Origin: a bacterium
GTDB taxonomy: Bacteria; Patescibacteriota; Gracilibacteria; UBA1369; GCA-2718715
Assembly (NCBI GenBank): GCA_002718715.1
Contig: PBFJ01000041.1
Span: 28-64,027 of the forward strand
DNA: 64,000 nucleotides
Direction: 5' to 3'
This document shows, piece after piece, positions 35,460-55,701 of this stretch. Positions within the stretch are counted from its first letter, which is position 1. Every line of letters begins with the position of its first letter. The translations under genes and the position numbers were made by a program. The notes below the pieces were generated by a model, which had not been told where the DNA came from, did no database searches, and saw only the letters and a program-made list of their open reading frames with translations.

Positions 35460-35559
35460 ACTTAGCATAAAATAATAATTCTTAAATTTTTTTATAACTA
35501 ATCAATATTTGATTACAGTTTTCAAGATATGTTAATTTACAGGGACATAATTTAATCAA

Positions 35560-36153: not shown

Positions 36154-36158
36154 GAATA

Positions 36159-36701: not shown

Positions 36702-36729
36702 TTATATTAATAACAAAAAATTTATTTGA

Positions 36730-36774
36730 TTTAAATTTGAGTAATTAAAAAAAATTGGAATTACTCAATTTAAA
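36730..36774. terminator. Hairpin downstream of the ThDP gene pair (terminator or operator)
   Basis: TTGAGTAATT (36737-46) pairs with AATTACTCAA (36759-68); extends about 6 bp further past a 1-nt bulge. Confidence 0.4.
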
Positions 36775-36996
36775 AATTTAATAAAAATTTTCTTTAGAAA
36801 AAATACTCTTTAATATTCATAGCAATAAAAATTAAGTACTTTTAAGATATTTTTCATAAATAATTTAGAAGATCCATACATAGTTGTTATTTGGTAATTG
36901 TGTTTGACCTTTGCAATGTAAAATAATTTATTAGAACAACTTTAAGATGATAAAGTTAGGGCTTATTAATTCAATTAATGTTTTGAAAGGGTTTTT

Positions 36997-37929: not shown

Positions 37930-37990
37930 TCCTATATCGATAAACTCTATTTAAAAATATTTTTTAAATTGAAAATCAAGATTCAAATTT

Positions 37991-38581: not shown

Positions 38582-38623
38582 ATTAAAGAATTGCTTATTA
38601 ATCAATATAAAATTAAAAAATAA

Positions 38624-39265: not shown

Positions 39266-39396
39266 AAGGAATTAAATATATTAAATTCTTAGCTGCTTAA
39301 TTAATTGATAATAATCAAATTATAATTTGTTATAAATAATCTTAATAACCTAGAGTAAAATCCATATGAACTGGACTTTATTTCTGAAACAATTGT

Positions 39397-39999
39397 ATGT
39401 TTAAATCTAAATATAAATTTATTGGAAGAAAAAGAATCTGTTCAAATAGCAAATTTGATGTTTTATTTGATAATCTTATTTCTCAAGATAATCAAGAAAT
39501 CAATGATTTTCTTGTCATTAAACCTAAAGTTAACCATAAAGGTTATATTTCTGGAATATGTGTACTCCCTATGTATAGAGATAAATTTTGTTTAATGAAC
39601 GTCTGGCGACATCAATTTAAAAATTTTGTTTATCAAGCTCCTGCAGGTTTTATAGAAAAAAATGAGAAACCATATCAAACTGCTATTCGTGAATTAAAAG
39701 AAGAAACGTCTTTCATTTGCGAACAAAAGAATATGATTTCTCTTGGTACTTATATCCCTGATGCAGCACTTATTGAGTGTCGAGTAGCCTTATTTTTAGC
39801 AAAAGATTGTATGAAATCCTCTTCCAAAGTCGAAAGTGAAATTGGTTCTAGTGATGTTATTTACTTTTCTAAAAAAGAAATTAAAGAATTGATTTTAAAA
39901 GAGGAAAATATTGGAGGTTCAACATTAGTTACCTGTATAAGATCATTAATACATTTGGATTTAAAAGATTCATCAACTTGCTCTTTTTATAAAGATTAA
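39397..39999 (+). CDS. NUDIX hydrolase (ADP-ribose/NDP-sugar pyrophosphatase-like)
   Basis: Nudix box GFIEKNEKPYQTAIRELKEET. Confidence 0.85.
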   Translation: MFKSKYKFIGRKRICSNSKFDVLFDNLISQDNQEINDFLVIKPKVNHKGYISGICVLPMYRDKFCLMNVWRHQFKNFVYQAPAGFIEKNEKPYQTAIRELKEETSFICEQKNMISLGTYIPDAALIECRVALFLAKDCMKSSSKVESEIGSSDVIYFSKKEIKELILKEENIGGSTLVTCIRSLIHLDLKDSSTCSFYKD

Positions 40000-40170
40000 T
40001 TTGTTAATGAGAATTTTTCAAAAGGAAATTACTCAAGATATAACTATCTATTCATTTAAAATAATTAGTTATAAAGCAAGAAATTGTCACTTTATTTTTT
40101 GTAAGGAATCTTTTTTAATTATATATTTTTGGCCCTATTCGCATAGAATTAATATAAATATTTAAAATCA

Positions 40171-41730
40171 GTGAATAGAATTTCTATCAATAAATTACGA
40201 GAACTTTATAATCAAATATCAGAAAAAAGGATAATTAAGCCAAGATTGAAAAAAGGGATTTTTAATTATTTAAATTTATCTATTCATATTAGTAGGGATG
40301 AGAGAGATTTTGACCTTACGAATTATAAATTATTTAGAAGTCTTATTTCATCAAATCAATTAGATTTAAGAGAAATAAAAAATAATAAATCAAAAAAAAT
40401 TTACGAAGACTATTTTTGTAATTTTAAGGAATTTAATTATTTATTATCAAAAGATATACCTTTTTTATTTTTAATTGATATTTTGAAATTTATTAAACAA
40501 ATGTTTGATACAATAATAATATTAATAATAAGCACTATATCGTCTTTTAAAAACTCTTTTAAGATTATTTTATTTGGAAAGAATAAACTTATTAGAAAAA
40601 AAATTCATAGTATTTATTATTGGGAAAAAAGAGATAATTCAGCTTTGTATTATTATCCTAGTATTTTTGATGATAGTAATAACTTAATATTCGTATCATC
40701 CTTTGCGGACAGTAAAAAATTTTTATTTTTGGGTTTATTAGGTTCTTTGAGAAATAGTAAATATATTTCTCCAGTAAAAAATTTAGATATAAAAAGTCTT
40801 ATATTAAGCTTATTTCAGTTTATACATCTTTATTTAAATGATTTATCTTTAGTATTTACAAATAAGGATTGTTCATTTTTGAAATTTTGGTATGGCTGGA
40901 AAAAATGTTCAGAAATTTTTTATAGTATTCTCATCTATAATTCCATTTTTGAATTAGTTAAAAATTCCTATGAATGTGAATTCATCTCTTGGCATGAGAA
41001 TCAAGTCTCTAATCGTGCATTTTCATTGGCAGTATCAAATGCAATAAAAAAGTTTAATTGTAAATCAACTTTATCTACATATAATGGTTCTCCAATTTCA
41101 CAACGAAATAAAAGGCAATTTTTCCCTACTAAAGATGAATTAAGAATAGGTTTTTGGGGTAAAAAATATTATGTACAAGATAAAGAATCAAAATATGAAT
41201 TAGCTTCCTACTTAAATAAAAAAAAGATCAAAATAGATTTACAAATTGTTCCTGAAAATATGATTAGAATTCAAAATGATAAATTTGAAGGTTTTAAAAA
41301 AGTTAAATTAATTAGAGAAATTACAATATTTACTCATGACTCATATTGGGATCTTCTGGCATGTTTATCAGGAGTAATTAATTTTAGAAATGATTTTCAT
41401 AAAAAAAATTGTTCAACAATTAAAGAAAATAACTTAATATATATAAGGCTTCATCCTTGCTTAATTAAAAAAGAAGCATTAAAAAGAATATTGAGTATGC
41501 AAGAGATTTCTACAAACTACAGATTCGAATTTATAAGTAATAATAGTGAATCAATTATGGATTCAATTAAAAAAAGTTCATTTTGTTTTTTTGGATTATC
41601 ATCATATATTAATTTAGCGATTTCTCTTAATTCAAATGTAATTTCAGTTGATACAAATCATATTGATAAATCTCCAATAAATTCAAAATTCTTAAGTACT
41701 AGAAAATTTCTAGTTTCTAATCCATGGTAA
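40171..41730 (+). CDS. Hypothetical surface-carbohydrate biosynthesis protein (possible GT-B transferase)
   Basis: 519 aa; SWHENQ, IRLHP, GLSSYINLAI motifs resemble GT-B C-terminal domains. Confidence 0.45.
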   Translation: MNRISINKLRELYNQISEKRIIKPRLKKGIFNYLNLSIHISRDERDFDLTNYKLFRSLISSNQLDLREIKNNKSKKIYEDYFCNFKEFNYLLSKDIPFLFLIDILKFIKQMFDTIIILIISTISSFKNSFKIILFGKNKLIRKKIHSIYYWEKRDNSALYYYPSIFDDSNNLIFVSSFADSKKFLFLGLLGSLRNSKYISPVKNLDIKSLILSLFQFIHLYLNDLSLVFTNKDCSFLKFWYGWKKCSEIFYSILIYNSIFELVKNSYECEFISWHENQVSNRAFSLAVSNAIKKFNCKSTLSTYNGSPISQRNKRQFFPTKDELRIGFWGKKYYVQDKESKYELASYLNKKKIKIDLQIVPENMIRIQNDKFEGFKKVKLIREITIFTHDSYWDLLACLSGVINFRNDFHKKNCSTIKENNLIYIRLHPCLIKKEALKRILSMQEISTNYRFEFISNNSESIMDSIKKSSFCFFGLSSYINLAISLNSNVISVDTNHIDKSPINSKFLSTRKFLVSNPW

Positions 41731-41736
41731 TTTTTA

Positions 41737-43485
41737 ATGAAATTTTTAAAGGATAAATCTTTTTATAAAATACTTTCTTTATTAAGTAAAAAAAGAAAAA
41801 AACAACTTTATTTTCTTATATTTTTTTTAACTCTCAATGGTGCTTTAGAGTTTTTTTCCGTAGCATCAATAATCCCTTTATTATCAATTATTAGTTCAGA
41901 AAATATTAGTAATTCAATTCCAATTATTGGAAAATATATTACATTGCTAAATATAAATGATCCCTCTTTAAGATTGCTTTTTTTTACTTTATCTTTTTGT
42001 ATATTTGTCTTCTCATCAACTCTTTTAAGGATATTCAATATTGCTTATATTTTTAGACTTTCTGCTAAGGTAAATATTGATATAAGTAATTTAATATTTA
42101 GAAATAACATGTATCAATCATATGCAAAATATACAAATAAAAATTCATCAGAAATAATAACATTGGCTCTAGAAAAGGTTGATATAGCTACTGCATGTAT
42201 TGATTCTTTATTAACAGTAATAGCGAGTACTATGCTTGGAATATCTATTATTATTTCTTTATTAATACTCAAATGGCAGGTTGTAATGATTGGAATAATT
42301 TTTATTTATTTTTATTATTCTTTGGTTTATACAAATATAAAAAAAATGTTATATAAAGATGGAAAAATAACTTCAAGAATAATCCCACTTCGTTTGAAGG
42401 TTCTACAAGAGGGACTGGAAGGCTATAAAGATATAATTATCAATAGTTTAGAAAAAGTTTATACTAGCTTATTTTATGAATATCAATCAGTAATTAAATT
42501 AAAACAAGCAAATTTAAATTTCTTTTTGACAATTCCTAGAATTTTAATAGAAGGAATAATATTAACTATAATAGCAATTTTGGCTTATTTTTTATTTAAA
42601 TCTCAACAAAATATTGCCTCTTCCATTCCCCTTATAGGTTCTTTTATTTATGCATTTCAAAGATTATTACCACTTACCCAGCAAATTTATGCTGCTTCTG
42701 CGAATTATAAATATAAATCTACAGTAATTAATGACTTGGTAAATGATTTGGAAGAAGGTAAAAATAATCAGGCTTTATATCTTTCTAAGAAAAGAATTTA
42801 TTTTAAAAAAAAGCTACTTTTTAAAGGTATCAAATTTGGTTTTAAAAATAAAAATAATGTACTAAATAATATAAATATTAGAATTGATAAAGGAGATATA
42901 ATAGGAATTTATGGAGAGACTGGAAGTGGAAAAAGTACTTTATTAAATATTATTATGGGTTTAGTTTCTCCTTCTAGTGGGAATATAAAAATAGATAATA
43001 TTGATATTTCGAATGAAAATTCTCTCGTTAATTGGACAATAAATTTTGCCCATGTTCCACAAAATATTTTTTTAAAAGAAGCTACTATTGAAGAAAATAT
43101 AGCGTTTGGAGAAGAAAAGGAAAATATAGACTTTGAATTGTTAGTTAAGGCCGCTAAGGTTGCACATATTTATTCTTTTATTAAAAATACTGATAAGGGG
43201 TTTAAAACACTTGTTGGAGAAAGGGGGATACTTTTGAGTGGAGGTCAAAGGCAAAGAATTGCGATAGCTAGAGCAATTTATAAGTCAAGAAATATCTTAG
43301 TTTTAGATGAAGCAACCAGCGCTCTTGATGATTCTACTGAAGAAAAGATTCTTAGATCTATTTTGGATATGTATAGGAACTTAACAATAATAATGGTTAC
43401 TCATAGAACTAGCACACTCAAAAATTGTAATCGTATTTTTAAAGTTCAAAATGGAAAGATAATTGAAGAAAAAAAAGTTACATAG
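41737..43485 (+). CDS. ABC exporter, fused TMD-NBD (PglK/MsbA-like glycan flippase)
   Basis: N-terminal TM helices; Walker A GETGSGKST, LSGGQRQR, Walker B LDEATSALD. Confidence 0.9.
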   Translation: MKFLKDKSFYKILSLLSKKRKKQLYFLIFFLTLNGALEFFSVASIIPLLSIISSENISNSIPIIGKYITLLNINDPSLRLLFFTLSFCIFVFSSTLLRIFNIAYIFRLSAKVNIDISNLIFRNNMYQSYAKYTNKNSSEIITLALEKVDIATACIDSLLTVIASTMLGISIIISLLILKWQVVMIGIIFIYFYYSLVYTNIKKMLYKDGKITSRIIPLRLKVLQEGLEGYKDIIINSLEKVYTSLFYEYQSVIKLKQANLNFFLTIPRILIEGIILTIIAILAYFLFKSQQNIASSIPLIGSFIYAFQRLLPLTQQIYAASANYKYKSTVINDLVNDLEEGKNNQALYLSKKRIYFKKKLLFKGIKFGFKNKNNVLNNINIRIDKGDIIGIYGETGSGKSTLLNIIMGLVSPSSGNIKIDNIDISNENSLVNWTINFAHVPQNIFLKEATIEENIAFGEEKENIDFELLVKAAKVAHIYSFIKNTDKGFKTLVGERGILLSGGQRQRIAIARAIYKSRNILVLDEATSALDDSTEEKILRSILDMYRNLTIIMVTHRTSTLKNCNRIFKVQNGKIIEEKKVT

Positions 43486-43574
43486 AAGAATTTATAACTC
43501 TTACTTTTATATGGGTAAAATAGATAATAAATTCAAATTTATTTATTTAAAATTAAAAATTTATATTTAATTTT

Positions 43575-44561
43575 ATGAGTTTTATTAATCACGAACAGAA
43601 ATTTGTAGTTTTTGGATCTACCGGTATGGTTGGCAGCTCTATCCTTAGGATATTAACAAATAAAGGGTATAAAAGAATTTTTAATCCAACTAGAAAGGAA
43701 TTAAACCTGCTTGATATGAATTCTGTTGAATCATGGTTTAATAAGCATAAACCTGATGTTGTAATATTGTGTGCAGCTAAAGTTGGTGGGATTCATGCTA
43801 ATAATTCCCATCCAGCAGACTTTATTCTGGAAAATTTAAAAATTCAAACAAATGTTATTGATGCATCTTGGAAATTTAATGTAAAAAAATTTTTATTTTT
43901 AGGAAGTAGTTGTATTTATCCAAAACATGCTAATCAACCTATTATTGAAGAGGAATTACTTAAAGGTGAATTAGAACTAACAAATCAGTGGTATGCTATT
44001 GCTAAGATCTCTGGAATTAAGCTCTGCGAAGCATTAAAAAAACAATATGGTTTTAATGCAATAAGTTTGATGCCTACAAATTTGTATGGTCCAGGAGATA
44101 ATTATGATGAAATAAATAGTCACGTTCTAGCAAGTTTTATAAGACGTTTTTATAAAGCTAAAATGGAAAAATCAGAAAAAGTTATTTGCTGGGGATCTGG
44201 TAATCCTATGAGAGAATTTTTGCATGTAGATGATTTGGGAAATGCAATTTTATTTGTTTTGGAGAATTGGGATATAAATGGTGATTTTATTCCTTTGGAT
44301 TTAAATGGTGAACCTCTCTCTTTTTTAAATGTTGGGACTGGAAAGGATATTTCAATTAAAGAACTAGCAAATCTAGTTGCAGAAATTATAGGATTTAAAG
44401 GAACAATTAAATGGGATAAATCTATGCCTGATGGCACACCAAGGAAGTTACTAGATATTAGCAGGTTAAAAAATTTAGGTTGGAGTCCAAAAATTAATTT
44501 TAAGGATGGTTTGAAATCAACTATTGAGAGTTTTGAAAGACAATCAAAAAGCAAAAATTAA
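43575..44561 (+). CDS. fcl: GDP-L-fucose synthase
   Basis: GMVGS, AAKVGGIHAN, LGSSCIYPK, YAIAKI, MPTNLYGPGDNY, SHV, REFLHVDD, PDGTPRK. Confidence 0.93.
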   Translation: MSFINHEQKFVVFGSTGMVGSSILRILTNKGYKRIFNPTRKELNLLDMNSVESWFNKHKPDVVILCAAKVGGIHANNSHPADFILENLKIQTNVIDASWKFNVKKFLFLGSSCIYPKHANQPIIEEELLKGELELTNQWYAIAKISGIKLCEALKKQYGFNAISLMPTNLYGPGDNYDEINSHVLASFIRRFYKAKMEKSEKVICWGSGNPMREFLHVDDLGNAILFVLENWDINGDFIPLDLNGEPLSFLNVGTGKDISIKELANLVAEIIGFKGTIKWDKSMPDGTPRKLLDISRLKNLGWSPKINFKDGLKSTIESFERQSKSKN

Positions 44562-44583
44562 TTTTTTTAATTCAAACATTTAA

Positions 44584-45456
44584 TTATTTTCTACTTACTA
44601 TATTTAACAAAAGGCTTATCCTGTTTGATGTGAAAAATTTTATTTCTTTTAAGCTTATAGGAAAGTATATCAAGTCCTTTTTATGAGTCGATATAGGATG
44701 TCTATTAAGTAGTTTGCTTCTATTAGTTAATTTATCTGAATAATTGGAACCTCTAATTCCTAAATGAATATATTTAAAATATTTTTTTAAAACTCTATTC
44801 GATCTTTGATTGAAACTACTTTTATTGCCAAACGGATAAGCAAAATGATTAATTGGAATATTCAATTTTTTAAAAATATCAATACCCTCCTTAATTATTT
44901 TTTTAATTTGATTTTCGTTTAATTCACTAAAGTTTTCATGATTGAAACCATGCATGCCAATTGTATGGCCAAGTTTTTGAATCTTTACAATATGTTCTTT
45001 TGATAATGGGATAAATTGACTTTTTAAATTATAGATTAATCTTTCATCATAATTGGGATATAAAATTTGGAAAAATTCTTGATTTTTATTTTTTTTATCT
45101 TTTAGCAAGCATGGAATTATAAAAAATATTGCTTTAATATTTAAGGGTTTTAAAACTTTTTCGGCAAATTCAAGATTGTTATAAAAGCCATCATCAAGAG
45201 TTAATAAAGAGTATGATTGGTCAGTGTATTTTTTATTGAAAAAATTATCAATATTTTCTGGGTTTAAAAATTTTTCTTGAGAATCTATCTTTTTAAGAAT
45301 TGATTTATAATGAGAGAAATAATTTTCTTGAGTGCTATGAAGATTATAAATAGTTAATCTTGATTTTTTGTATTTCTCTTTAATTAAAAAAATCTTGGGG
45401 AAAACAACCCCTAGAAAATCTGATATATTGATAATTATTTTTCTTAATAATAACAT
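44584..45456 (-). CDS. Polysaccharide deacetylase (CE4/NodB)
   Basis: LTLDDG, GMHGFNH, FAYPFG. Confidence 0.85.
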   Translation of the reverse strand: MLLLRKIIINISDFLGVVFPKIFLIKEKYKKSRLTIYNLHSTQENYFSHYKSILKKIDSQEKFLNPENIDNFFNKKYTDQSYSLLTLDDGFYNNLEFAEKVLKPLNIKAIFFIIPCLLKDKKNKNQEFFQILYPNYDERLIYNLKSQFIPLSKEHIVKIQKLGHTIGMHGFNHENFSELNENQIKKIIKEGIDIFKKLNIPINHFAYPFGNKSSFNQRSNRVLKKYFKYIHLGIRGSNYSDKLTNRSKLLNRHPISTHKKDLIYFPISLKEIKFFTSNRISLLLNIVSRK

Positions 45457-45463: not shown

Positions 45464-46816
45464 TTAAAAAATATTAAGTCTTTTTGATAAATCTGAGCAA
45501 AAAATATTCTTAGGATCCATTTTGCTTTTTACTTCTCTCCATTCATTAAGTCTTGGGTAAGTGCTCTTAAACATTTCAGAAGACTGCATTGAGTCCTTCG
45601 CTAAATATATTCTTCCTCCAGCGCTAAGAACCTTCGCATCAAGTTTTAATAAAGTTTGATTAAGATTGCTAAGATATAAAGGAAAATCTATAGCTAAAGT
45701 CCATCCTTTAATTGGAAAAGATAAAAATGCTTTATTTCCAGGGCCAAATTTTTTTAGAACAGTTAAGAAACTAGGGGTACTAATTTTCTTTGTTATTTCT
45801 AAAATTTCAAAGATAGTCTTATATTCATTCTCAGGTACAACGAACTGATACTGTATAAATCCTTTCGATCCATAAAACTTGTTCCAATTCTTTATACCAT
45901 CAAGTGGATGAAAAAAGTTACTTATGGACTTAATTTCATCTTTTTGTTCTTTTGGTGTTTTTCTAAACCAAACTTCATTAAATGCTTTTACTGTAAATTT
46001 ATTAAGTAATCTAAATGGCAGAATAGATGGAGCTGAAGCAATTGATTTTGAATGATAAGATAATATATTTTTATTAGGATCTTTTTTTAAAAGATCACTA
46101 TCATCTGCATGATTACCAACCGTTAATACTCCTCTATTTTTTTGACTTAGACTATCTACCCAGGCAACAATATATTGGTAATTATCTTGAGAATTTGTCA
46201 TTGCATCCATAAGATCATCTAGATCTTTATATTTGTATGTATTTGCTTTCATTTTTGAAGTTTTTATTGGTATTAGAGAAAAAGTAGCTTCTATAATTAC
46301 GCCAGTTAATCCCATTCCACCTATGGTCGCCCAAAACTGATTCTTTATTTCAATAGTTTCATTATTATTTGAAGAAAGTTTTTTTAAATTACCCAATCCA
46401 TCTATTAGAAGTATTTCTTTGATGTGATTGCCAAAACTCCCATTTAAATGATGATTTTTACCATGAACATCTGAAGCTATTGCTCCCCCAATAGTAACGT
46501 TTCTTGTGCCAGGTGAAACGGGAATGAAGAATCCCTCTGGGATGATTTTTTTTAAAAGCGAATCAATACTTACCCCACTTCCTGCAGTTATAAATCCTTC
46601 TTTTTTATTTAAATAAATATGATCAAAGTCATGTAAACTAAAAACTGATTCATTTTTAAGTTGAGCAGCATCCCCATAAGAACGCCCAAGACCTCTTGCT
46701 AAAAGCGAGTTTTTATTAGAATTGACTATTATATTTTCTAATTGCTCAAATTTATTTGGTTTTAATATTCTTACATTTGCTGGATTATGTAGACCCCAAC
46801 CACTAATTAAATTCAT
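45464..46816 (-). CDS. dprE1: Polyprenyl-phosphoryl-ribose 2'-oxidase, DprE1-like
   Basis: RGLGRSYGDAA, TIGGAIASDVHGKNHH, GGMGLTG, QYQFVVP, GWTLAIDF, YLAKD. Confidence 0.88.
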   Translation of the reverse strand: MNLISGWGLHNPANVRILKPNKFEQLENIIVNSNKNSLLARGLGRSYGDAAQLKNESVFSLHDFDHIYLNKKEGFITAGSGVSIDSLLKKIIPEGFFIPVSPGTRNVTIGGAIASDVHGKNHHLNGSFGNHIKEILLIDGLGNLKKLSSNNNETIEIKNQFWATIGGMGLTGVIIEATFSLIPIKTSKMKANTYKYKDLDDLMDAMTNSQDNYQYIVAWVDSLSQKNRGVLTVGNHADDSDLLKKDPNKNILSYHSKSIASAPSILPFRLLNKFTVKAFNEVWFRKTPKEQKDEIKSISNFFHPLDGIKNWNKFYGSKGFIQYQFVVPENEYKTIFEILEITKKISTPSFLTVLKKFGPGNKAFLSFPIKGWTLAIDFPLYLSNLNQTLLKLDAKVLSAGGRIYLAKDSMQSSEMFKSTYPRLNEWREVKSKMDPKNIFCSDLSKRLNIF

Positions 46817-46839
46817 CTTTTCTTTAAATTTTATAATTT

Positions 46840-47568
46840 TTATAGCTTTGAAGCATATTTTCTAGGTAAATGACGAATAAAAAACATAATTATACTCCAC
46901 CACCAAGGTAAGTATTCAATCCCTCTTTTTTGAGGATTACGCATTAAATAATCTGCAACTTTATTAGTAGATATACAAAGAAAATTTGGAGCTCCTATTG
47001 CCATCCGAGTGGAAATGAATCCTGATTTTATTATACGGACAGAGAACGGCTTTTTTTCACATCTAAGTAATATGCCCTCACAGAAGGTTGATAATGCAGC
47101 TTTTGCTGCGCCATAATGATAATTAGAGGGTCTTCCTCTATCAGATGCAACAGATGTAAAAACCCAAAGACTTCCGAATTTTTCAAAACGTTTTTCGTTT
47201 GTTATTTCTGTTAACCAAGGTAATAATCCAAGATAGTTAACATAATTAATTTTTAATGCTTCAGTAATATTTTTCTTAGCCAAATCTGGATTACCAAGAG
47301 TACCAGCTGTAATTAAATAAAGATCATATAAGTCAACTTTAGGTTTGAAACTTTTTTCTGGATAACAATTAAAAATTAGATCATTTTTCTCTTGAGTTAC
47401 ATTAGCTCTATAAACATCTTTGAGTATATGGAATAGCTCTAAATTACTATCTAAATCTCTGCAAACTAAATGAAATTTTTCACATCCCTTTTGGGCTAAT
47501 TTTATACAGATTGATTTTGCAACGGCACTTGTACTTCCAATTATTAATGCGCTTTTAAAATACTTCAT
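46840..47568 (-). CDS. dprE2: Polyprenyl-phosphoryl-2-keto-pentose reductase, DprE2-like SDR
   Basis: IGSTSAVA, SVASDRGRPSNYHYGAAKA, GFISTRM; adjacent to dprE1. Confidence 0.85.
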   Translation of the reverse strand: MKYFKSALIIGSTSAVAKSICIKLAQKGCEKFHLVCRDLDSNLELFHILKDVYRANVTQEKNDLIFNCYPEKSFKPKVDLYDLYLITAGTLGNPDLAKKNITEALKINYVNYLGLLPWLTEITNEKRFEKFGSLWVFTSVASDRGRPSNYHYGAAKAALSTFCEGILLRCEKKPFSVRIIKSGFISTRMAIGAPNFLCISTNKVADYLMRNPQKRGIEYLPWWWSIIMFFIRHLPRKYASKL

Positions 47569-47657
47569 TCAAAGATTTGATATTAAATATCTTTTTTAAT
47601 TTACCATTACATTTAAATTAAATAAAATAATTTTATTCATTTTAACTTTTACAATTT

Positions 47658-49244
47658 TTAATTAGATCCAATTTTATTATTTGAATTGAAATGCCTTTTT
47701 AAATTTATTGAAATAATTATTGATAATGCAGTTATACTCCATATTGTTATTAATCTTCTAAGAATAGAAATAGTTAATGCGCTCATTCCAGATAGTCCTT
47801 CTTGTTGAAGCAAAATTGTTGAAGTAACTTCATTAACTCCTAAACCTCCAGGTAAACCTGATAAAACCCCCAGCATTCCAGATATAAAATATATAATTAT
47901 CGCATCAGATAAAGTTATTGAAGCTGGAGAAATTACATATACAAGCAACCATAGAATTAAAGCTTCAATACCCCATAAATAAAAACTTGTAAAAAGTGAA
48001 AAAATAAAAGTTTTAAAAGGTTTTTCTTTGGGGATATATTTCTTTAAATCATCCCAATATTTTGTAAAAAATTGGAAAAAATTTTTTTTTAAAAAAATTA
48101 AAATTATTAAAATCATACAAATTAAAAAAATTAAATATTCAAATCTTATAAATAAAAATAAATTTATTAATTGTTGATATTTAACATAAATAAAATTTGG
48201 AGATAAAATACATAACCAAATCAGCACAGATAGAAGATCAAAAAATCTTTCTATGAAAAATACAGGGAATAATTTTTTTATTGGATATCCTAAATATTTA
48301 TTTAAGAGCTGAACTCTAGAAATTTCACCAATTTTCCCAGGAGTTGCGGTAAGTGCAAAACCACTAAACCACCACATGAAATCTTTAATATTAAAATTTC
48401 CTATTGATAATGAGTTAAGTATAATTCTCCAACGTAGATATCTACCTAAATAACTTAAGCCGAGTATGAAATACAGAAGAGGTAGCCATGATATTAATTT
48501 AATTATTGAAGCTTTTAAATCAGTAACTTGTACTACATCTAAATTTAAAAGTTTATTAATGCCAAAAATAAAAATAAATATTGAAACAATAATGAAAATA
48601 TTACTCTCATAATTATTTTCTTTATATTTATTAGGTTTATTTTTAAAACTACGAAAATGAGGGTATGAACTTGCCTCAAGAAGTTCTTTGTCGCCAAAGC
48701 TATCACCATATACCTCTAAATCCTTTGGTTCTGGCATATATCCAAGATAATCTCGTAAACGATTCACTTTTTCTGCTCCTTTGCAGTTGGGGGTTTTCAA
48801 TACAAATTTTTCTTTACTTTTAATTTTTAAAATGTCATTGCATTCAGTAGCAATAAGCTCAACATTAAAATAACTAGATAAAGATGAAATTATAGGTTTA
48901 GGAGAAGCACTAATTATTAAAATTCTGTGTCCTTTATTTTTGTGCCATTTTAATCTTTCCATAGCGGCTGGTTTAATAAGCCTTTTTAAGATAATAGGAA
49001 GTTTTTTTAAGAGTACTTTTTTTCTTTTTGCGATAGTACTAGAATTAATGGCTTTGTTAATTAAAGTTTCTTTTAATTTGGTAGAAAAATCTTTTTCAAA
49101 AATAAATTTAAATAACTTTGGCAAGATATAAATCAAATCTAAAATCAAACCAAATAATCCTCTTGATAAAAAAAGAAAAATTAACGTCGAATCTCCTCTT
49201 ATAAGAGTCTTATCACAATCAAAAACTACTATATATTCTCTCAT
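47658..49244 (-). CDS. HAD-IB phosphatase fused to an LPG-synthase-TM (YbhN/AglD2-like) flippase domain
   Basis: N-terminal FDCDKTL, ISAS, NCKGAEK, YGDSFGD; C-terminal RYLRW, TPGKIGE, ERFFD, LPGGLGVNE, RLITIW. Confidence 0.85.
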   Translation of the reverse strand: MREYIVVFDCDKTLIRGDSTLIFLFLSRGLFGLILDLIYILPKLFKFIFEKDFSTKLKETLINKAINSSTIAKRKKVLLKKLPIILKRLIKPAAMERLKWHKNKGHRILIISASPKPIISSLSSYFNVELIATECNDILKIKSKEKFVLKTPNCKGAEKVNRLRDYLGYMPEPKDLEVYGDSFGDKELLEASSYPHFRSFKNKPNKYKENNYESNIFIIVSIFIFIFGINKLLNLDVVQVTDLKASIIKLISWLPLLYFILGLSYLGRYLRWRIILNSLSIGNFNIKDFMWWFSGFALTATPGKIGEISRVQLLNKYLGYPIKKLFPVFFIERFFDLLSVLIWLCILSPNFIYVKYQQLINLFLFIRFEYLIFLICMILIILIFLKKNFFQFFTKYWDDLKKYIPKEKPFKTFIFSLFTSFYLWGIEALILWLLVYVISPASITLSDAIIIYFISGMLGVLSGLPGGLGVNEVTSTILLQQEGLSGMSALTISILRRLITIWSITALSIIISINLKRHFNSNNKIGSN

Positions 49245-49251
49245 AATATGT

Positions 49252-49662
49252 TTATTTAAAAGTTATGTATTTATGACCATAGAAACTTGTAAAAACTAAT
49301 ATTCCAAGACCACAAGTATGAGAGATAAGCTCAATAAGTAATAAATTATCAAAGAAAATCATTAACCAGTTTTTCATCAAAATACTTACGAAGAATGTTT
49401 GTAAAACAGAAATAAGATTTACAAGTGCAAATGCTGGAAAAGATTTTTTAATTGATTTGTTTGAATTTAAGAAAACATATCTTTTAGCGAGAAGAAAAGC
49501 AATAATCATACCTATCCCATATGAAATAAGTATTGCAATCTCAAATCTAAAAAAAATTGATAAAATTATCCTGCAAATGATATTTATAATTGCGGAAGTA
49601 CTACCGGTAATTATAAAAAGAATAAATTGTATTTTCCCTTCTCTTTTTTTTGAATATATCAT
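49252..49662 (-). CDS. gtrA: GtrA-family polyprenyl-P-sugar flippase
   Basis: 136 aa, four TM helices, F..G....IN, RYVF, HKYITF. Confidence 0.85.
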   Translation of the reverse strand: MIYSKKREGKIQFILFIITGSTSAIINIICRIILSIFFRFEIAILISYGIGMIIAFLLAKRYVFLNSNKSIKKSFPAFALVNLISVLQTFFVSILMKNWLMIFFDNLLLIELISHTCGLGILVFTSFYGHKYITFK

Positions 49663-50957
49663 TTACTTTTTAATATTTTTTTCACTAAATTTCTTCCAAA
49701 ATCTATACTTTCACTTATACCTCTATCTTCTGGATAATAAGCAGTGGTATCTACTGTAAAAATACCATTAAAAGGTTCTTGATCTGGTAATTTGTCTTTA
49801 AAATTTTTCTCGCAGATAGGTTGGGCATATTTATATCTACTACAGTGTGAAGATATTAAATCTTTATTTTTTAAATTAGGATTTATTGATTTTACGCATT
49901 GCCAAGCATCTTCTTTGAAAGATTCATCATCTCTTAAATAATCAGGATGATTTTGTGGCATGTAGAAAGGTATATAAGTTATATTTTCAGGAAGGTTTCT
50001 TAAATTGCTCATTTCTATAATACCTGGAATTGAGAATCTTGAATCATTTATATTAGTCCAAAAATTATTAGTTACTTTTTCACTGGTCTTTAAAATTACG
50101 CAAACACATGCTACGTAATTTAATTTTTTATATGAATTAGTAATTAAATTATTTATATTACTTTTGCTGAATATTTCTCCAATAAGTGGCAATGGGATAG
50201 TACTAATAACTAAATCAAATTTATATTCATCTGTGGGCGTATTTATATATGCTCCAGATTTTTTTAAAGGCTTAATATTTATAATTGGGCTAGAAATTTT
50301 TATTTCACCTCCATTTGCCATTATTATTTTTGACATTTCATTAATAAGCTGTATAGATCCATTTTTAAGGAATCCCAAATTCTCTTTAAGCTTTTTTCTT
50401 GATTTACCTAATCTATTAATTCTGCTCCAGATCCAAGCTGCAGAAATCTGATTTGAAAATTGATAAAATTTATAAGAAAATAGTTTTTCCCATAATTCTT
50501 CATATCCCTCATCTCCCAACCATTTTCTCAACCAATTTATGGCATCTATATTGTCTAAATGATTCCAGTCTTTTATAGTTAAGCATCTGGCAGCGTGTAA
50601 CAAATATCTTAATCTAGTTAAAAAGGAAACTTTTGAAAACATTATTACCGATATTAAGGAACCCCACTTATATAATTTCCCTTGATAGTAAAACCCCATT
50701 TTTGTTCTTTTCCAATTTAGTTGACTCTTTAATCCAATTTCATCAAGTATTCTAAAAAATCCTTTATCATTTAAACAATGAAAATGATAATAACGTTCAA
50801 TTTCTAAACCTTCAAAATCAAAACAAGATGCCATACCACCCAATCTATTATCGGCTTCAAAAATTACAGGTTTATAACCTTGAATGGTCAATTCATATGC
50901 AACAGCAAGACCCATAGGCCCACCTCCTATAACTGCTATTTTGGAACTTTTTCTCAT
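49659..50957 (-). CDS. FAD-dependent oxidoreductase (protoporphyrinogen-oxidase/amine-oxidase fold)
   Basis: IGGGPMGL, LGGMA, IERYYHF, YAQPI, YYPEDRG. Confidence 0.82.
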   Translation of the reverse strand: MRKSSKIAVIGGGPMGLAVAYELTIQGYKPVIFEADNRLGGMASCFDFEGLEIERYYHFHCLNDKGFFRILDEIGLKSQLNWKRTKMGFYYQGKLYKWGSLISVIMFSKVSFLTRLRYLLHAARCLTIKDWNHLDNIDAINWLRKWLGDEGYEELWEKLFSYKFYQFSNQISAAWIWSRINRLGKSRKKLKENLGFLKNGSIQLINEMSKIIMANGGEIKISSPIINIKPLKKSGAYINTPTDEYKFDLVISTIPLPLIGEIFSKSNINNLITNSYKKLNYVACVCVILKTSEKVTNNFWTNINDSRFSIPGIIEMSNLRNLPENITYIPFYMPQNHPDYLRDDESFKEDAWQCVKSINPNLKNKDLISSHCSRYKYAQPICEKNFKDKLPDQEPFNGIFTVDTTAYYPEDRGISESIDFGRNLVKKILKSK

Positions 50958-51008
50958 AAAAAAATTGATTTCATATTAAATTGTACATTTTAAATTTATT
51001 CAGAACAT

Positions 51009-51947
51009 TTAATAGAATATTATTCCAACTATTAATACTGATATTAGCCATAAAAATACAACTAGTCTTATTGCTTTATCATGTATCAAAATAAGCTCTG
51101 GGTTTTCAGTAGTTATTGATTTACCATTATATTTTCTTATTTCAGAGATCTCAGGATCACTTATGAATTGATACCGGAATAAACCCATTAAAACAAAAGG
51201 TAAGGTTACCAGCATCCATGATGATGAAGCTCCATTTAGAGATGGACCAGCTGCCCATAAACTGTAGCTTATGAAAGTGCTTGATACTAATAAGCTTTCA
51301 TATCTAAGAAGTAAAGGAAGAGAATAGCTTCTAAGAATATCCCTTGTTAAGATAAGTGTTTTTTTGTAATACAAAAGTTCCGCTTTTCTCTTCTCAACTG
51401 CTAAAAATAGAGCTAAAAGACCAATTGTTAAAATAAACCATGGTGAAAATCTGAGTTCTGTCGCTACTAAACCTGCTATTGCTCTTAGTAGAAATCCTGA
51501 GGCAATACAAAAAATATCTAAAATAGGTTCCCTTTTTAATCTTATGCAATATGCAATTTGAATAAAGACATAAAGAAGAATTATAAAGAAAAATTGAAAA
51601 GATATTAATTGAGCTATCTTTAAACTAATTAATCCAAAAATTAAAGAAGCATTCTTAGCCAATGTTTTTGAGATTTTACCGCTTGCAATAGGTCTATAAC
51701 GTTTAATTGGATGCATTTTATCTTTAGATATATCTCTAAGATCATTAAATAAGTATATGGCTGAAGATATAAAGCAAAAACTTATAAACCCATAAAATGA
51801 TTTTAAAAAGATATACTGATTAAATTGAAAAGAAAATAATAATGATGCGAAAACTAATAAATTTTTAGACCATTGTATTGGTCTTATCGCTTGAAAAAAT
51901 GAAATAAAAAGTTTTAAAAAATAAGTTTTTGAAATTATCCCTTTCAA
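51009..51947 (-). CDS. Polyprenyl-phosphate 5-phosphoribosyltransferase (UbiA family, DPPR-synthase-like)
   Basis: RPIQWSKNLLVF, YLFNDLRD..D..HPIKRYRPIASG, GFLLRAIAG, KRKAE. Confidence 0.88.
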   Translation of the reverse strand: MKGIISKTYFLKLFISFFQAIRPIQWSKNLLVFASLLFSFQFNQYIFLKSFYGFISFCFISSAIYLFNDLRDISKDKMHPIKRYRPIASGKISKTLAKNASLIFGLISLKIAQLISFQFFFIILLYVFIQIAYCIRLKREPILDIFCIASGFLLRAIAGLVATELRFSPWFILTIGLLALFLAVEKRKAELLYYKKTLILTRDILRSYSLPLLLRYESLLVSSTFISYSLWAAGPSLNGASSSWMLVTLPFVLMGLFRYQFISDPEISEIRKYNGKSITTENPELILIHDKAIRLVVFLWLISVLIVGIIFY

Positions 51948-52065
51948 AATAATGATTGATTAAATTTTTATTTTATTTTTTATTGCAAATTTAAGGGTTG
52001 TTTTGTTTTAATTATTTATAAATTAATAATTAAAAAATAGCTTATTTTAACAAATATAAATTTAA

Positions 52066-53226
52066 TTAAAAATTATAGTGCTTTAAAAGTGGTAATGGAT
52101 CATAAGATCCAATTCCCCAAGGTCCTAGTAAGAAAATTGTAATCAGAAAAATATAAGTTAATAAACCAAAAAATTTTGGAAAATATAATTTTGATTCTTT
52201 TGCAGAAATAAGCATTAATAAGTTACAGCAAATTGTTGACGCAGCAAGAAATCTTGTATCATCTCTAGCAATAAAAGATAAAATTAAGGGAGAAAAGATA
52301 GATAATTTAAGATAAAGTGGCAATTTCACGAATTTAAAAACTAAATATAAAATAAAGCAGTAGTAAATAGTAATAAGATAACTTCCACCTAATAATGATT
52401 TTGGAGTAAGTAAAATAATGGAATGTTCAAAACTATCTTTTAAAGTATGAATTAGTTCTACATTCATAGAAGTTTCTAATTCCTTGCTTATATTTGTTAA
52501 ATAAATCCCTAGTTCCTCTCTGCCTGGTTCATATCTACCAAAAACTAATAGTAAAAAACCTGTAATTAAAGGGAGTAAAAAAATTGGTAGGATTTTTGAA
52601 ATTTTCTTATATCTTATATTCGGATATTTATAAAATAAAAGTCCAATAATTAAAGGGATATAGAAAAAAAGTGAAGCTTCATGAATTAGAAGCTGTAGAG
52701 AAATAATTAGTGAAATAAATATACATTTTTTAGTAAAAGAATAAGACTCACTAAGAGTTAATATTATTGTAAAAAGAGAAAAAACTAAGCATATTAGATC
52801 CATTCTCCCAATGTCATATCCTAACCTAAAAAATAAAACTGGACTTAAAGTAAATAAAGTATAAAAAGGTATTTTTTCTTTTAATTTCCAATCCTTAAAA
52901 CATGATCTTGTAAATATCCAGAAAGTAGTGCTAAATAAAACTGAAAAAAATAAATGAGAAGTTAATACCAATGATGAGGGATTAAGATTATCTGATAAAC
53001 GCAATATCTTAAATAGTGATCCTATTAAACCTCTTTTTATAAATCCTAAATCGAAATAATTAACATAATAATATCCTTTTAAAGTTGAACTTATAGAGCT
53101 TAAAGATCGAAAGGGGGGTAAAGAGACTATGAAAACTAAAAATATAGATGATATAAAATAATAAATTTCTATTAAATTCTCGCGGATAAGAAGACTTGTT
53201 TTGGATCTGTTATATTTAAAAAACAT
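52066..53226 (-). CDS. Integral membrane protein, candidate GT-C pentofuranosyltransferase
   Basis: About 9-10 TM segments; GFIKRGLIG, GRMD, IHEA, DDTRF; upstream of the ubiA operon. Confidence 0.5.
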   Translation of the reverse strand: MFFKYNRSKTSLLIRENLIEIYYFISSIFLVFIVSLPPFRSLSSISSTLKGYYYVNYFDLGFIKRGLIGSLFKILRLSDNLNPSSLVLTSHLFFSVLFSTTFWIFTRSCFKDWKLKEKIPFYTLFTLSPVLFFRLGYDIGRMDLICLVFSLFTIILTLSESYSFTKKCIFISLIISLQLLIHEASLFFYIPLIIGLLFYKYPNIRYKKISKILPIFLLPLITGFLLLVFGRYEPGREELGIYLTNISKELETSMNVELIHTLKDSFEHSIILLTPKSLLGGSYLITIYYCFILYLVFKFVKLPLYLKLSIFSPLILSFIARDDTRFLAASTICCNLLMLISAKESKLYFPKFFGLLTYIFLITIFLLGPWGIGSYDPLPLLKHYNF

Positions 53227-53235: not shown

Positions 53236-54264
53236 TTAAAAAAAACTAATATAAATATATTCGCCTAATGTTTCTATAATTCTTCCATTTAAACCTTCTT
53301 TAAATTTCTTAATGCCATTTGACGTTTTTTTATTAAAACCACCAAGATCAAATTCTTTCAAGCCCTTTTTTTTACTCTCAATAATTGCATGCCAAAGTAA
53401 TAAGGTATTTGCTTGAAATTTTCTACCCATATCATTCGTGAATCCAAATAAATATAAAGCTTTATCTTTGAATAACAATACACCAATACTACCTAAATTC
53501 TTGTCAGGTTCTTTTAAACTAGATGCCTGATATATTTTTAAACTTAATAGTCCATTATTTTCTGAATCGTTAAATAACCAATTTAAACATTTTTCATGAC
53601 TTATTGGAATAAATGATAAATTCATTGCATATTTATTGTATTCAATGAGAATATTTTTAATCATATTAATATCATTGATTTCTTTAGCTTTTGCAAATTT
53701 TAATCCTTTTTTAAGTCCATTTCGCCAATTCCCTCTAAGCTTTTTAAAAAGTTCTTGCTCTGATTTAAGTAAATCCACTATGTAGGTTTTTGTTGGATAT
53801 GATCTTAACTTTATAAAATTTAATTTTTTTAAATGCTTATCATATGAGTAAATATAAGAAGGTGAGAAAGATATCAATTTTGTGTATTTTTTTTTGATGA
53901 ATCTAATAATTTCAATTAATACAAGGTATTTATATTTATGGAATTCTTTACATATTAAAGGACCATCATTAATTCTAAAAAATTTAATTAATCCCAAACA
54001 AAAAGATTTTTTCGTTAAACTTACAATCCCATATATATTATTTTTATGGTAAATTTTTAGATAATATGAATAATCTTTATTAAGGTAATATCCAGGTGTT
54101 TGAATATGAGAAATATTTCTGAAATTTAATTTTTCATATATTTTTTTGTATTCAGATAAATCTATTTCATCAACAATAAATTTATTTTTTTTCCCCTTTA
54201 ATTTTTTTATTGGATTCTTACAAAATGAGTAATTTAATTTTGTAAAAATTTTTTCAATTCTCAT
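53236..54264 (-). CDS. FemAB/GNAT-type aminoacyl(-tRNA) transferase-like protein
   Basis: VDLLKSEQELFKKLRGNWRNGLKK, LLLWHAI, FDLGG, GIKKFKEGLNG. Confidence 0.8.
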   Translation of the reverse strand: MRIEKIFTKLNYSFCKNPIKKLKGKKNKFIVDEIDLSEYKKIYEKLNFRNISHIQTPGYYLNKDYSYYLKIYHKNNIYGIVSLTKKSFCLGLIKFFRINDGPLICKEFHKYKYLVLIEIIRFIKKKYTKLISFSPSYIYSYDKHLKKLNFIKLRSYPTKTYIVDLLKSEQELFKKLRGNWRNGLKKGLKFAKAKEINDINMIKNILIEYNKYAMNLSFIPISHEKCLNWLFNDSENNGLLSLKIYQASSLKEPDKNLGSIGVLLFKDKALYLFGFTNDMGRKFQANTLLLWHAIIESKKKGLKEFDLGGFNKKTSNGIKKFKEGLNGRIIETLGEYIYISFF

Positions 54265-54297
54265 ATTCAGAATTTTTAAAAAAATTGTACAACTTAA

Positions 54298-55701
54298 TTA
54301 ATATAATTTTAAAACAAAATTTTGAGGAAAATTAAATTGTTTTTTTATTAATAATCTTTTTATTATACCTCTACCAAGTTTATAAAAAAACTTTCGAGAA
54401 TCACTATATGTATCTTTAAATTTTTTGTAAAATTTTAAATTAAGAATATTCTGATTATTTTTTGAGTCATAAAAAATTAAAAACTTACCAATAATTTTTC
54501 CGTTTTCCAGTATTTTTATTTCTTTTTTTGTTGAGGAGTAAACTATTTTGAACGAATTTATATATTCTTCAAAACATCTTTCTATACAATTCTCAATGAT
54601 TTTTGAATTGATATCTTGATGAACGGGCAGTGTAATTTGATTCTTGAACCTTCTTTTGGCATTTTTATATTTATCTCTTGATTGCACTACTTCAGGCGGC
54701 AGGTCAGGCCAATTTCCAAAAGGCAAGCCATATAAATTATATTGTTTTAAAATCTTTGTTCTTTCTTTTGTATTTTTAAAATTAACTATACCTAGATACG
54801 GTATATATTCTAAATTTTCCATTTTCAAAAAAGGAAGTATCAATTTTAAATTTTTTTTCCATGAGTTAAAGTTTGATACTCTTTTCTTTTTTATAAAATC
54901 TATTTTTTCGTAATAAAGATTGAATAATCTTTTTGACATCACACCTAAATTATAATTTATCTTATAGTTTGAGCTATTATGATTATTGAAGTTCAGTTTT
55001 GGATATTTATATCCAAAGTATTTTCTAATCTTTCGCTTGAAAAATAAATACAGAAAATCTATTATTCTTCGTAGTTTAAAATCTTGATAATTCCTTTTCA
55101 GAACTAAATCAAAATTATTAAATTGTTTGTAATCAAAAGAATCTTTAAATTTAATGATGCTTCCATCTTCTATTCCAAATAATTTATGAGGACTATATAT
55201 CTCTATATCAGAAAAACTCTTTTCAAATGCAGTTAAACAATGAGTATTATCTTCTATTAATGTTATATTCTTTCTATTAATATATTCTAGTAAATCACTA
55301 TTTATTCTATTTTTTTTTCCAAAGTAGTTTACAAACAAAAAAATATCTACTTTGTTAAATTTTAATATTGAGATTAGTTTTTTACTTTTCAGAAGGTCGT
55401 GTTCATAAAAAATTATTTTTGCATTAGTTCTTCTTAATAAAGATAATGATTCGTTGCAAATAAAATCTGGAATAAAAATTGTTCTTTTACTCTTGAAAAT
55501 ACTTAGGTATTGGTAAATTCTTAATAAAGATAATGTTGAACGTGGATATAGAATTAGATTTTTGGATTTATAAAGAATCTTGTAGTGATCATTTTTTTTA
55601 TCTTTAAAAGCTTTGTAAAAAGAAAAGAATATATTTTTAGTTTTCATCAAGGGATATAGCGATATCCTATTTTTATAATTAATTTTTTGTGTTTGAGTCA
55701 T
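54298..55701 (-). CDS. Divergent DegT/DnrJ-type PLP-dependent enzyme with C-terminal extension
   Basis: IPDFICNE, VNYFG, IEDNTH, IYSPHKLFG, WPDLP, ITLPVHQ. Confidence 0.72.
   Translation of the reverse strand: MTQTQKINYKNRISLYPLMKTKNIFFSFYKAFKDKKNDHYKILYKSKNLILYPRSTLSLLRIYQYLSIFKSKRTIFIPDFICNESLSLLRRTNAKIIFYEHDLLKSKKLISILKFNKVDIFLFVNYFGKKNRINSDLLEYINRKNITLIEDNTHCLTAFEKSFSDIEIYSPHKLFGIEDGSIIKFKDSFDYKQFNNFDLVLKRNYQDFKLRRIIDFLYLFFKRKIRKYFGYKYPKLNFNNHNSSNYKINYNLGVMSKRLFNLYYEKIDFIKKKRVSNFNSWKKNLKLILPFLKMENLEYIPYLGIVNFKNTKERTKILKQYNLYGLPFGNWPDLPPEVVQSRDKYKNAKRRFKNQITLPVHQDINSKIIENCIERCFEEYINSFKIVYSSTKKEIKILENGKIIGKFLIFYDSKNNQNILNLKFYKKFKDTYSDSRKFFYKLGRGIIKRLLIKKQFNFPQNFVLKLY

Follow-up and report, generated by a model that had tools for sequence, protein, structure and literature searches.

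Which sugar do seven adjacent genes on one strand of contig PBFJ01000041.1 (assembly GCA_002718715.1) build, where do they deliver it, and to which organism does the contig belong? We addressed these questions in a 64,000-nucleotide stretch of the contig (positions 28 to 64,027; hereafter the window), for which an initial annotation had proposed a complete mycobacterial-type pathway for lipid-linked arabinofuranose (Araf), of the decaprenyl-phospho-arabinose kind, in a probable marine cyanobacterial island. Our analysis indicates that the seven genes very probably build a lipid-carried pentose, D-arabinofuranose being the most likely one, and link it to a surface glycan on the outer side of the membrane. 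The mechanism would be the known three-component pentofuranose route equipped with a DprE1/DprE2 epimerase pair, an assignment that we regard as sound on sequence grounds and that concerns a system type already published in 2024 (Kelly et al, 2024; PMC11127046). We consider it likely that the genes form a self-contained extracytoplasmic pentofuranose system, a picocyanobacterial version of the three-component type, on a contig that most likely derives from a Prochlorococcus-like organism and was mis-binned.

Among the open reading frames of the window, the seven genes are co-directional and lie at 45464-53226 on the - strand with spacings of -4 to 118 nt (Table 1). None of them is broken, and their lengths agree with those of their homologues. 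Every gene of this one-strand array was confirmed with the family first proposed for it, in the case of the glycosyltransferase-C (GT-C) candidate by fold.

The formation of the sugar donor is assigned to three clear homologues that retain key motifs. The DprE1-type oxidase aligned with solved DprE1 structures at E 1.4e-99 (4aut) and at 3e-95 over residues 4-449, and its flavin adenine dinucleotide (FAD)-binding domain matched PF01565 (E 2e-16). Its residues H118, K120, Q322/Q324 and K407, invariant in 16 homologues, align with His132, Lys134, Gln334/336 and Lys418 of Mycobacterium tuberculosis DprE1, which we take to be active-site residues, and Ala375 occupies the position of Cys387, presumably the target of benzothiazinones in the mycobacterial enzyme. 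The UbiA-type protein scored 216.8 bits against the decaprenyl-phosphate phosphoribosyltransferase model NF008978, over the cut-off of 207, and aligned over residues 16-302 with the solved enzyme 8j8j (E 3.3e-44), including the Asp-rich pattern N-D-x-R-D...H-P-x-K-R-x-R-P-I-A-x-G. In the case of the short-chain reductase (SDR), the sole match in the Protein Data Bank (PDB) at E <= 1e-5 was DprE2 of the DprE1-DprE2 complex (21gq_C, 4.8e-13), with residues 6-241 aligned to DprE2 11-251, including the S...Y-x-x-x-K site and the C-terminal tail. Some model scores weigh against this assignment. DprE1 reached 496.6 bits with NF053785, just below the equivalog cut-off of 500, over profile positions 5-448 of 449. 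The SDR scored 80.4 bits with the NCBIfam DprE2 model NF053786, far under its cut-off of 250, and its best model was the generic SDR PRK07102 (144 bits versus a cut-off of 267). Because of its NF053786 score, we call the SDR DprE2-like by function and context, not as an equivalog.

Table 1. Genes of the module, in order of transcription, and the two genes that flank it (window coordinates).
Feature	Coordinates	Strand	Product	Supporting match	Remark
GT-C-fold polytopic membrane protein	52066..53226	-	386 aa	predicted fold	candidate pentofuranosyltransferase
UbiA-family polyprenyl-phosphate 5-phosphoribosyltransferase, Rv3806c type	51009..51947	-	312 aa	NF008978	
FAD flavoprotein, protoporphyrinogen-oxidase/phytoene-desaturase fold	49659..50957	-	432 aa	PRK07233	
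GtrA-family small membrane protein	49252..49662	-	136 aa	PF04138	
HAD-IB phosphatase + MprF-type flippase-like domain fusion	47658..49244	-	528 aa	PF12710 + PF03706	
DprE2-type short-chain reductase (SDR)	46840..47568	-	242 aa	solved DprE2	
DprE1-type FAD oxidase (polyprenyl-phospho-ribofuranose 2'-oxidase)	45464..46816	-	450 aa	NF053785	
Polysaccharide deacetylase-family gene	44584..45456	-		PF01522, E 1.4e-13	7 nt downstream of DprE1
FemAB/GNAT-like gene	53236..54264	-	342 aa	PF02388, E 1e-13, residues 256-338	9 nt upstream of GT-C gene

DprE1 homologues are very common (at least 8000 at E <= 1e-20), and we compared gene content across 80 genomic loci retrieved with a DprE1 alignment (blastp, E <= 1e-5, at least 50% query coverage), many of which end at contig ends. 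DprE1 was present in all 80, the SDR, which adjoins it, in 71, and UbiA in 69. The flavoprotein was found in five loci, all cyanobacterial, and GtrA and the HAD/flippase fusion in four each; among the 80 loci, those carrying these extra genes were all picocyanobacterial. Cyanobium usitatum (L006) has the order UbiA-flavoprotein-GtrA-HAD/flippase-SDR-DprE1 of the window, with an extra NAD-dependent epimerase gene between UbiA and the flavoprotein. All six donor genes are present in Synechococcus sp. MIT S9503 (L008), and four in Prochlorococcus sp. AG-412-F02 (L020), where no match to the flavoprotein or GtrA was found. The proteins of these three uncharacterised modules are 34-57% identical to those of the window (53-57% for the flavoprotein), and their DprE1 falls in the same tree clade as that of the window. 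As DprE1, the SDR and UbiA occur together in 69-71 of the 80 loci and the gene order recurs in Cyanobium usitatum, the grouping of the module genes is not due to chance. A scan of viral contigs with the DprE1 alignment returned 59 pattern matches, none of them a relative.

A HAD phosphatase, two flippase candidates and the GT-C-fold protein would complete the logic of the pathway, a reading supported by their domain content. The fusion protein combines a HAD domain (PF12710, residues 6-190, E 8e-21) with an LPG_synthase_TM domain (PF03706, residues 223-507, E 1.6e-31); its HAD-IB part scored 65.2 bits with TIGR01488 (cut-off 45) and its flippase-like part 67.1 bits with TIGR00374 (cut-off 43.2), and the D-x-D-x-T motif of the HAD domain is visible in the translation. 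A cluster of 478 Atlas members has the identical architecture, with Cyanobacteriota as the commonest known phylum, which we take as a lead only. From its domain type and context, the HAD domain would be the 5-phosphatase. No resemblance to the HAD half of HAD-UbiA fusions was detected, as their model NF006088 did not match even at E 10; this counts against the assignment and makes the substrate of the domain a guess. The MprF-type domain possibly flips the product. GtrA, whose start overlaps the stop of the upstream gene by 4 nt, matched PF04138 at E 3.1e-10 (40.7 bits, cut-off 26.1) and has homologues of 45-48% identity within the cyanobacterial modules. It belongs to what we take to be the family of mycobacterial Rv3789, and we regard it as a candidate flippase or helper for the lipid-linked sugar.

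The first gene of the array encodes a membrane protein that matched no Pfam or NCBIfam model, even at E 10. An AlphaFold model built from 18 homologues (predicted local distance difference test, pLDDT, 79; predicted template modelling score 0.84) was aligned with VIA-align to 48161 representative PDB chains. The best 20 of these comprised 17 GT-C glycosyltransferases and three glycosylphosphatidylinositol-transamidase chains (Z 15.3-8.1; 253-340 residues aligned), among them ALG12 (15.3), AftB (14.4, 320 residues aligned), Pmt4 (14.1), PglB (12.6), AftA (12.4), ArnT (11.5), AftD (11.1), EmbA/B (10.6) and PimE (8.6). After these 20 GT-C-type entries Z drops from 8.1 to 5.7, and the next entry is a designed protein. 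Foldseek ranked the families as VIA-align did, with no PDB match at E <= 0.001. Three observations detract from this picture: the Foldseek E values are weak (at least 0.015), helical bundles can reach Z 13-14 with this aligner through arrangement alone, and the conservation of position 59 as D or E, complete in the 18 close relatives, does not extend to 61 distant members. In view of the first two, we regard the assignment of a GT-C fold to the 386-residue protein, as modelled, as good though open to some doubt. Eleven hydrophobic segments are present in the model. Close relatives conserve D138, D143 and E183 in addition to D/E59, and the first three are kept in at least 90% of the 61 distant members, as are a first-loop Y..GF.KRG..G pattern, a YD.GR.D stretch and an H-E pair. 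In the model, these conserved motifs would lie in outward loops.

Together, these assignments suggest the following route. The UbiA-type transferase would move ribose-5-phosphate from phosphoribosyl pyrophosphate (PRPP) to polyprenyl phosphate, as its homology indicates, and the HAD domain of the fusion, judging from domain type and context, would remove the 5-phosphate. DprE1, with strong homology and key residues kept, would oxidise C2', and the DprE2-type reductase would re-reduce it to give polyprenyl-phospho-D-arabinofuranose. GtrA, the MprF-type flippase-like domain or both may carry this donor to the outer face of the membrane, where the GT-C-fold protein would transfer the sugar to an O-antigen- or capsule-like polysaccharide of the 64-kb island, or to a protein. 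For the protoporphyrinogen-oxidase-like flavoprotein, the lipid-linked intermediate and the isoprenoid carrier are both possible substrates.

For the last step there is another explanation, which we consider unlikely: the GT-C-fold protein could be a polymerase or ligase, or could serve a different lipid-linked sugar, with the arabinosyltransferase encoded elsewhere. Speaking for it, the protein has no sequence match to characterised GT-C families. It appears from profile searches to belong to a large, unclassified family (2047 representative clusters at E <= 0.001 and 840 at <= 1e-10, among 1.84 billion representatives) that the searched Pfam copy does not cover: a Pfam scan of the 61 distant members gave two marginal matches, to GtrII (0.002) and GT87 (0.0072). 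EpsG is the automatic name of one Atlas cluster of its relatives. A precomputed label, PF27463 (Rv1490-like membrane protein), is attached to a distant homologue with 30% identity (P0182) and to 13% of the nearest Atlas cluster; among the papers listed for Rv1490, none dealt with its function. The window's GT-C protein was found beside the module in none of the 80 DprE1 loci and was not found in three named picocyanobacterial genomes, and profile comparison showed no relationship between its family and the membrane proteins next to the Cyanobium and Synechococcus modules (probabilities 0.4 and 0.1). A strong copy of the family was detected in only three of 401 sampled genomes of the family containing Prochlorococcus sp. 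AG-412-F02 (hereafter the picocyanobacterial family). Against this alternative, the GT-C gene belongs to the same array as UbiA, which it precedes by 118 nt, and in at least three relatives it is found on one contig together with DprE1. GT-C and DprE1 homologues of 87% and 92% identity (P0139, P0002) list the same longest contig of 109026 nt, a second pair (P0158, P0124) lists a common longest contig of 25049 nt, and in the picocyanobacterial-family genome G524 a 51%-identical GT-C protein (one internal TAA) and a DprE1 fragment lie on one 27.8-kb contig (C16). Weak matches to the GT-C family also directly adjoin DprE1 in two picocyanobacterial-family genomes (G583:C93, G506:C1). No Wzy, WaaL or SEDS structure was present in the top 20 structural matches of the model, and variable GT-C partners are to be expected in three-component systems (PMC11127046). 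On G524:C16, the GT-C homologue (13691-14833) and the DprE1 fragment (27159-27787) each contain an internal TAA stop, and this cluster may be decaying, or the stops may be assembly errors.

We also considered that the donor is not arabinofuranose. The flavoprotein scored 456.7 bits with PRK07233 (cut-off 252) and is of the amine-oxidase (Amino_oxidase) type. Its structural model (pLDDT 86) had protoporphyrinogen oxidases (E 2.7e-25) and rice phytoene desaturase (template modelling score 0.81) as top Foldseek matches, and UDP-galactopyranose mutase ranked only 39 in the list. The modelled fold is that of enzymes with hydrophobic substrates, and the protein is a conserved extra member of the module, outside the requirements of the known pathway. 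The mycobacterial-type pathway of the initial annotation accordingly stands for DprE1, the DprE2-type reductase and the Rv3806c-type transferase, and the flavoprotein cannot be counted as part of it. Such an enzyme could change the final sugar, a point against arabinofuranose as the product: it might oxidise another position of the pentose or alter the carrier, and the sugar would then be a ribo-, xylo- or lyxofuranose or an oxidised derivative. In favour of this, the flavoprotein is kept inside the module in all five cyanobacterial loci that have it, the Cyanobium locus adds its epimerase next to it, and systems with several candidate epimerases are mentioned in the text of Kelly et al (2024). 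However, in all the studied cases described in that paper, the presence of DprE1 together with a DprE2-type reductase marks C2 epimerisation to Araf, and the window module has no second reductase to partner the flavoprotein. We regard a donor other than D-arabinofuranose as improbable.

The cluster also fits a scheme that is already known. According to Kelly et al (2024; PMC11127046), a widespread type of system combines a polyprenyl-phosphoribose synthase with a flippase and a GT-C enzyme to add alpha-linked pentofuranoses to glycans outside the cytoplasm; where the sugar added is Araf, the three-component system also carries homologues of DprE1/E2. In the window, a synthase, flippase candidates (putative in function) and a GT-C-fold protein are encoded together on the same strand, in 7.8 kb of a polysaccharide island of 64 kb. 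With the ORF15-ORF14-ORF12 system of Citrobacter youngae O1/O2, as presented in that paper, it shares a UbiA-type synthase that would depend on PRPP, a phosphatase of the HAD type (putative in the window), a flippase candidate and a GT-C protein, which in C. youngae is ORF12 of CAZy family GT136; both lie inside a surface-polysaccharide locus. In the system of Kelly et al, the HAD domain is fused to the synthase, whereas that of the window is fused to an MprF-type flippase-like domain; the flippase candidates of the window are GtrA and MprF-like, in contrast to the MATE protein of the C. youngae prototype; the window's GT-C protein is short (386 aa) and lacks a carbohydrate-binding module; and the protoporphyrinogen-oxidase-like flavoprotein is an addition to the three-component systems covered there. 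In the mycobacterial decaprenyl-phospho-arabinose pathway (Rv3806c, DprE1 Rv3790, DprE2 Rv3791, Rv3789), DprE1, DprE2, UbiA and GtrA are homologous to those of the window, and the Emb/Aft enzymes AftA, AftB, AftD and EmbA/B are among the structural neighbours of the GT-C model. The two differ in the alanine at the Cys387 position of DprE1, in the phosphatase, which is of the HAD type in the window and of the Rv3807c type in mycobacteria (PMC11127046), and in the transferases, with one small GT-C protein in the window and a battery of large ones in mycobacteria. The pilin D-Araf system of Pseudomonas aeruginosa Pa5196 (TfpW with DprE1/DprE2/Rv3806c homologues; bioRxiv 10.1101/2020.04.19.049825) is reported as a non-actinobacterial case with the same donor pathway and a transferase of the GT-C type that works on the extracytoplasmic side. 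In the window, where no search was aimed at them, neither a pilin gene nor a homologue of TfpW turned up, and gammaproteobacterial DprE1 proteins were the most distant in our sample (36-39% identity), on the outgroup branch of the tree. The new elements are the HAD-flippase fusion, the extra flavoprotein, the unclassified GT-C family and the likely picoplankton host.

That host has to be traced through a mixed bin. The window (contig C41) belongs to a bacterial assembly of 1.55 Mb in 48 contigs, 99% complete and 9% contaminated, which is placed among ~1-Mb genomes and has a genus mate of ~1.0 Mb. Its contigs fall into a core (24 contigs, 997 kb, 29.7% G+C), a low-GC group (11 contigs, 248 kb, 21.9% G+C) and a group B that includes C41 (13 contigs, 301 kb, 28.7% G+C), and the first principal component of tetranucleotide composition splits group B from the core. 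We scanned 142 and 58 proteins of the 12 other group-B contigs together with 57 from the window, many of which had no match at the thresholds used. All Pfam-assigned proteins were sugar-nucleotide, glycosyltransferase, export or related proteins, with at least six NeuB and at least six PglF-like copies, and no ribosomal, replication or photosynthesis families were found among the proteins scanned. At the DNA level, group-B contigs match only each other (66-86% identity); 14 proteins from outside the group (13 core, one low-GC) have weak homologues in it (27-42%), and no contig-end overlaps were found between C41 and any other contig. In all, about a third of the assembly lies outside the 1.0-Mb core, as 301 kb of polysaccharide islands and 248 kb of 22% G+C contigs, so that taxon-based claims on the genes of those contigs are unsafe. 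Two of the group-B contigs, C39 (1-2636) and C29 (1-2972), share their first genes at 81-86% nucleotide identity and diverge beyond them, as would be expected of alternative versions of one locus from related populations, co-assembled and co-binned. The low-GC group has its own codon usage, with 88% TAA stops, and the sole rhodopsin gene of the assembly lies in the low-GC part of C1.

The nearest named relatives of the contig's genes are picocyanobacterial. DprE1 was found in none of 60 relatives and none of 400 sampled genomes of the assigned class, and in 35 of the 401 picocyanobacterial-family genomes (best full-length match 56%, one fragment 61%). As a matched control, a nucleotide search with window 25001-45000 matched 87 of the same 401 genomes at 65-79% identity, several of them with multiple genes, and only two of 280 assigned-class genomes, each with a single gene at 66%. 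Syntenic blocks of up to eight C41-like genes were present in three picocyanobacterial-family genomes (40-75% protein identity; five to eight genes at 57-75%), and in one genome with such a block, a single contig of 1.70 Mb, the island has 27-28% G+C. We built a DprE1 tree of 52 rows (quick IQ-TREE run, midpoint rooting) from the window sequence, 31 loci picked from the 80 for their taxonomic spread and 20 metagenome proteins out of 120 listed. The window sequence fell inside a 29-row clade supported at 100 by the Shimodaira-Hasegawa-like approximate likelihood ratio test (SH-aLRT), in which the eight named rows are all Cyanobacteriota, and within it in an 18-row subclade (SH-aLRT 99) whose sole named row is a Prochlorococcus sequence. 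Two marine metagenome runs contain 85-95% of the sampled window words and are probably the source; the other 18 runs contain small shares.

Mis-binning of the contig is probable, since its gene order, its neighbouring genes and the DprE1 tree agree in indicating picocyanobacterial islands of the Prochlorococcus type. The host remains uncertain because the contig comes from a mixed metagenome bin, and we rate an origin as a mis-binned island of a Prochlorococcus-like picocyanobacterium as somewhat more probable than the other origins taken together. The cyanobacterial island of the initial annotation is to that extent plausible and unproven. Several findings pull the other way. Neither PsaA/PsaB nor other cyanobacterial core genes were found in the assembly, which sits among ~1-Mb genomes. 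The best full-length DprE1 match in the 401 picocyanobacterial-family genomes is 56%, versus 83-92% for other relatives (the 92%-identical DprE1 is encoded on a public contig of 109 kb, and one of 99% identity on a public contig of 158 kb), and compositional bias was flagged in many rows of the tree, including that of the window. In the Atlas cluster nearest to the GT-C protein the commonest known phylum is Pseudomonadota, a lead only, with the phylum known for 13 of 64 members, and this label conflicts with the Cyanobacteriota label of the HAD-flippase fusion. Finally, C41 resembles the core in codon usage (correlation of relative synonymous codon usage 0.986) and in the share of Shine-Dalgarno sites (3.5% versus 3.7%), a closeness that is the expectation for any ~29% G+C genome.

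Another marine bacterium sharing the picocyanobacterial gene pool is a possible source, though a rather less probable one. We think it improbable that C41 truly belongs to the small-genome organism of the bin and that its glycan islands were gained by horizontal transfer from the picocyanobacterial type. The contig was binned with that organism and resembles its core in the two properties just given, and two bins of the same order also have polysaccharide contigs (G011, with one gene at 56% protein identity and others at 25-44%, and G006, at 39-46%). Against such a transfer stand the absence of DprE1 from the 60 relatives and 400 class members sampled, the core, which by itself equals the genus mate in size within a bin that is 99% complete and 9% contaminated, and the redundant polysaccharide clusters of the 13 group-B contigs, which match only among themselves at the DNA level, have no end overlap with the core and are parted from it by tetranucleotide composition, with only the 14 weak homologues outside the group. 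That the whole assembly is a cyanobacterium was rejected, as PsaA/PsaB are missing from a 99%-complete bin.

If the assignment to a Prochlorococcus-like host and an arabinofuranose donor is correct, marine picoplankton, probably picocyanobacteria, vary their surface glycans by a mycobacterial-style lipid-linked arabinofuranose route. We found no paper pairing DprE1 or the decaprenylphosphoryl pathway with Prochlorococcus, Pelagibacter or cyanobacteria and arabinofuranose. A more far-reaching version, which we put forward tentatively and hold to be doubtful as a whole, is a Prochlorococcus-type hypervariable island that would add D-arabinofuranose, or a derivative made by the flavoprotein, through the unclassified but widespread GT-C family, with the phosphatase-flippase fusion coupling dephosphorylation to export and the strain-specific caps determining cyanophage adsorption. 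On this reading, such pentofuranose caps would be an adsorption determinant in the ocean's most abundant phototroph; the initial annotation had suggested a possible masking of phage receptors. The testable items of the cluster are the HAD-flippase fusion, the conserved flavoenzyme and the GT-C family of about 2000 representative clusters.

The genes adjoining the module are of less certain relevance. The deacetylase gene is possibly co-transcribed with it; neither this gene nor the FemAB/GNAT-like gene was found beside the module in any of the 80 DprE1 loci. The array continues immediately upstream of the GT-C gene (53236-55701, -) with the FemAB/GNAT-like protein and a 467-residue protein without family, both of which are possible modifiers of the acceptor glycan. 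Promoter-like sites showed no enrichment in the window (101 observed versus 114 expected), and terminator-like sites numbered nine versus 3.8 expected, all positioned within genes, so that no operon boundaries could be drawn.

Further sugar pathways surround the module. Window 28096-39265 (+, with 33380-34354 on -) encodes a GHMP kinase, a DegT aminotransferase, a nucleotidyltransferase, a DAO flavoprotein and epimerases, and also a split E1-dehydrogenase/transketolase-like pair, a SIS isomerase and a HAD phosphatase. This block resembles a heptose-type pathway, and up to eight of its genes recur syntenically in picocyanobacterial-family genomes, mostly at 57-75% protein identity. Clusters of the NeuB type for nonulosonic acids occur in window 13206-20251 and on four other group-B contigs (C28, C31, C44 and C29), with DegT, PglD-like acetyltransferase, 2-epimerase and HisF/HisH-like amidotransferase genes, and at least six NeuB paralogues over 13 contigs are far above the expected need of one 1-Mb genome. 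Finally, polysaccharide clusters on C23 (L109 11653-16525) and C43 (L108 17261-18058) contain a purine/methylthioadenosine (MTA)-phosphorylase-family gene, an IF-2B/MtnA-like isomerase and a 712-residue SDR fusion; these genes recall the MTA-derived 5-methylthio-pentofuranose route that Kelly et al (PMC11127046) mention.

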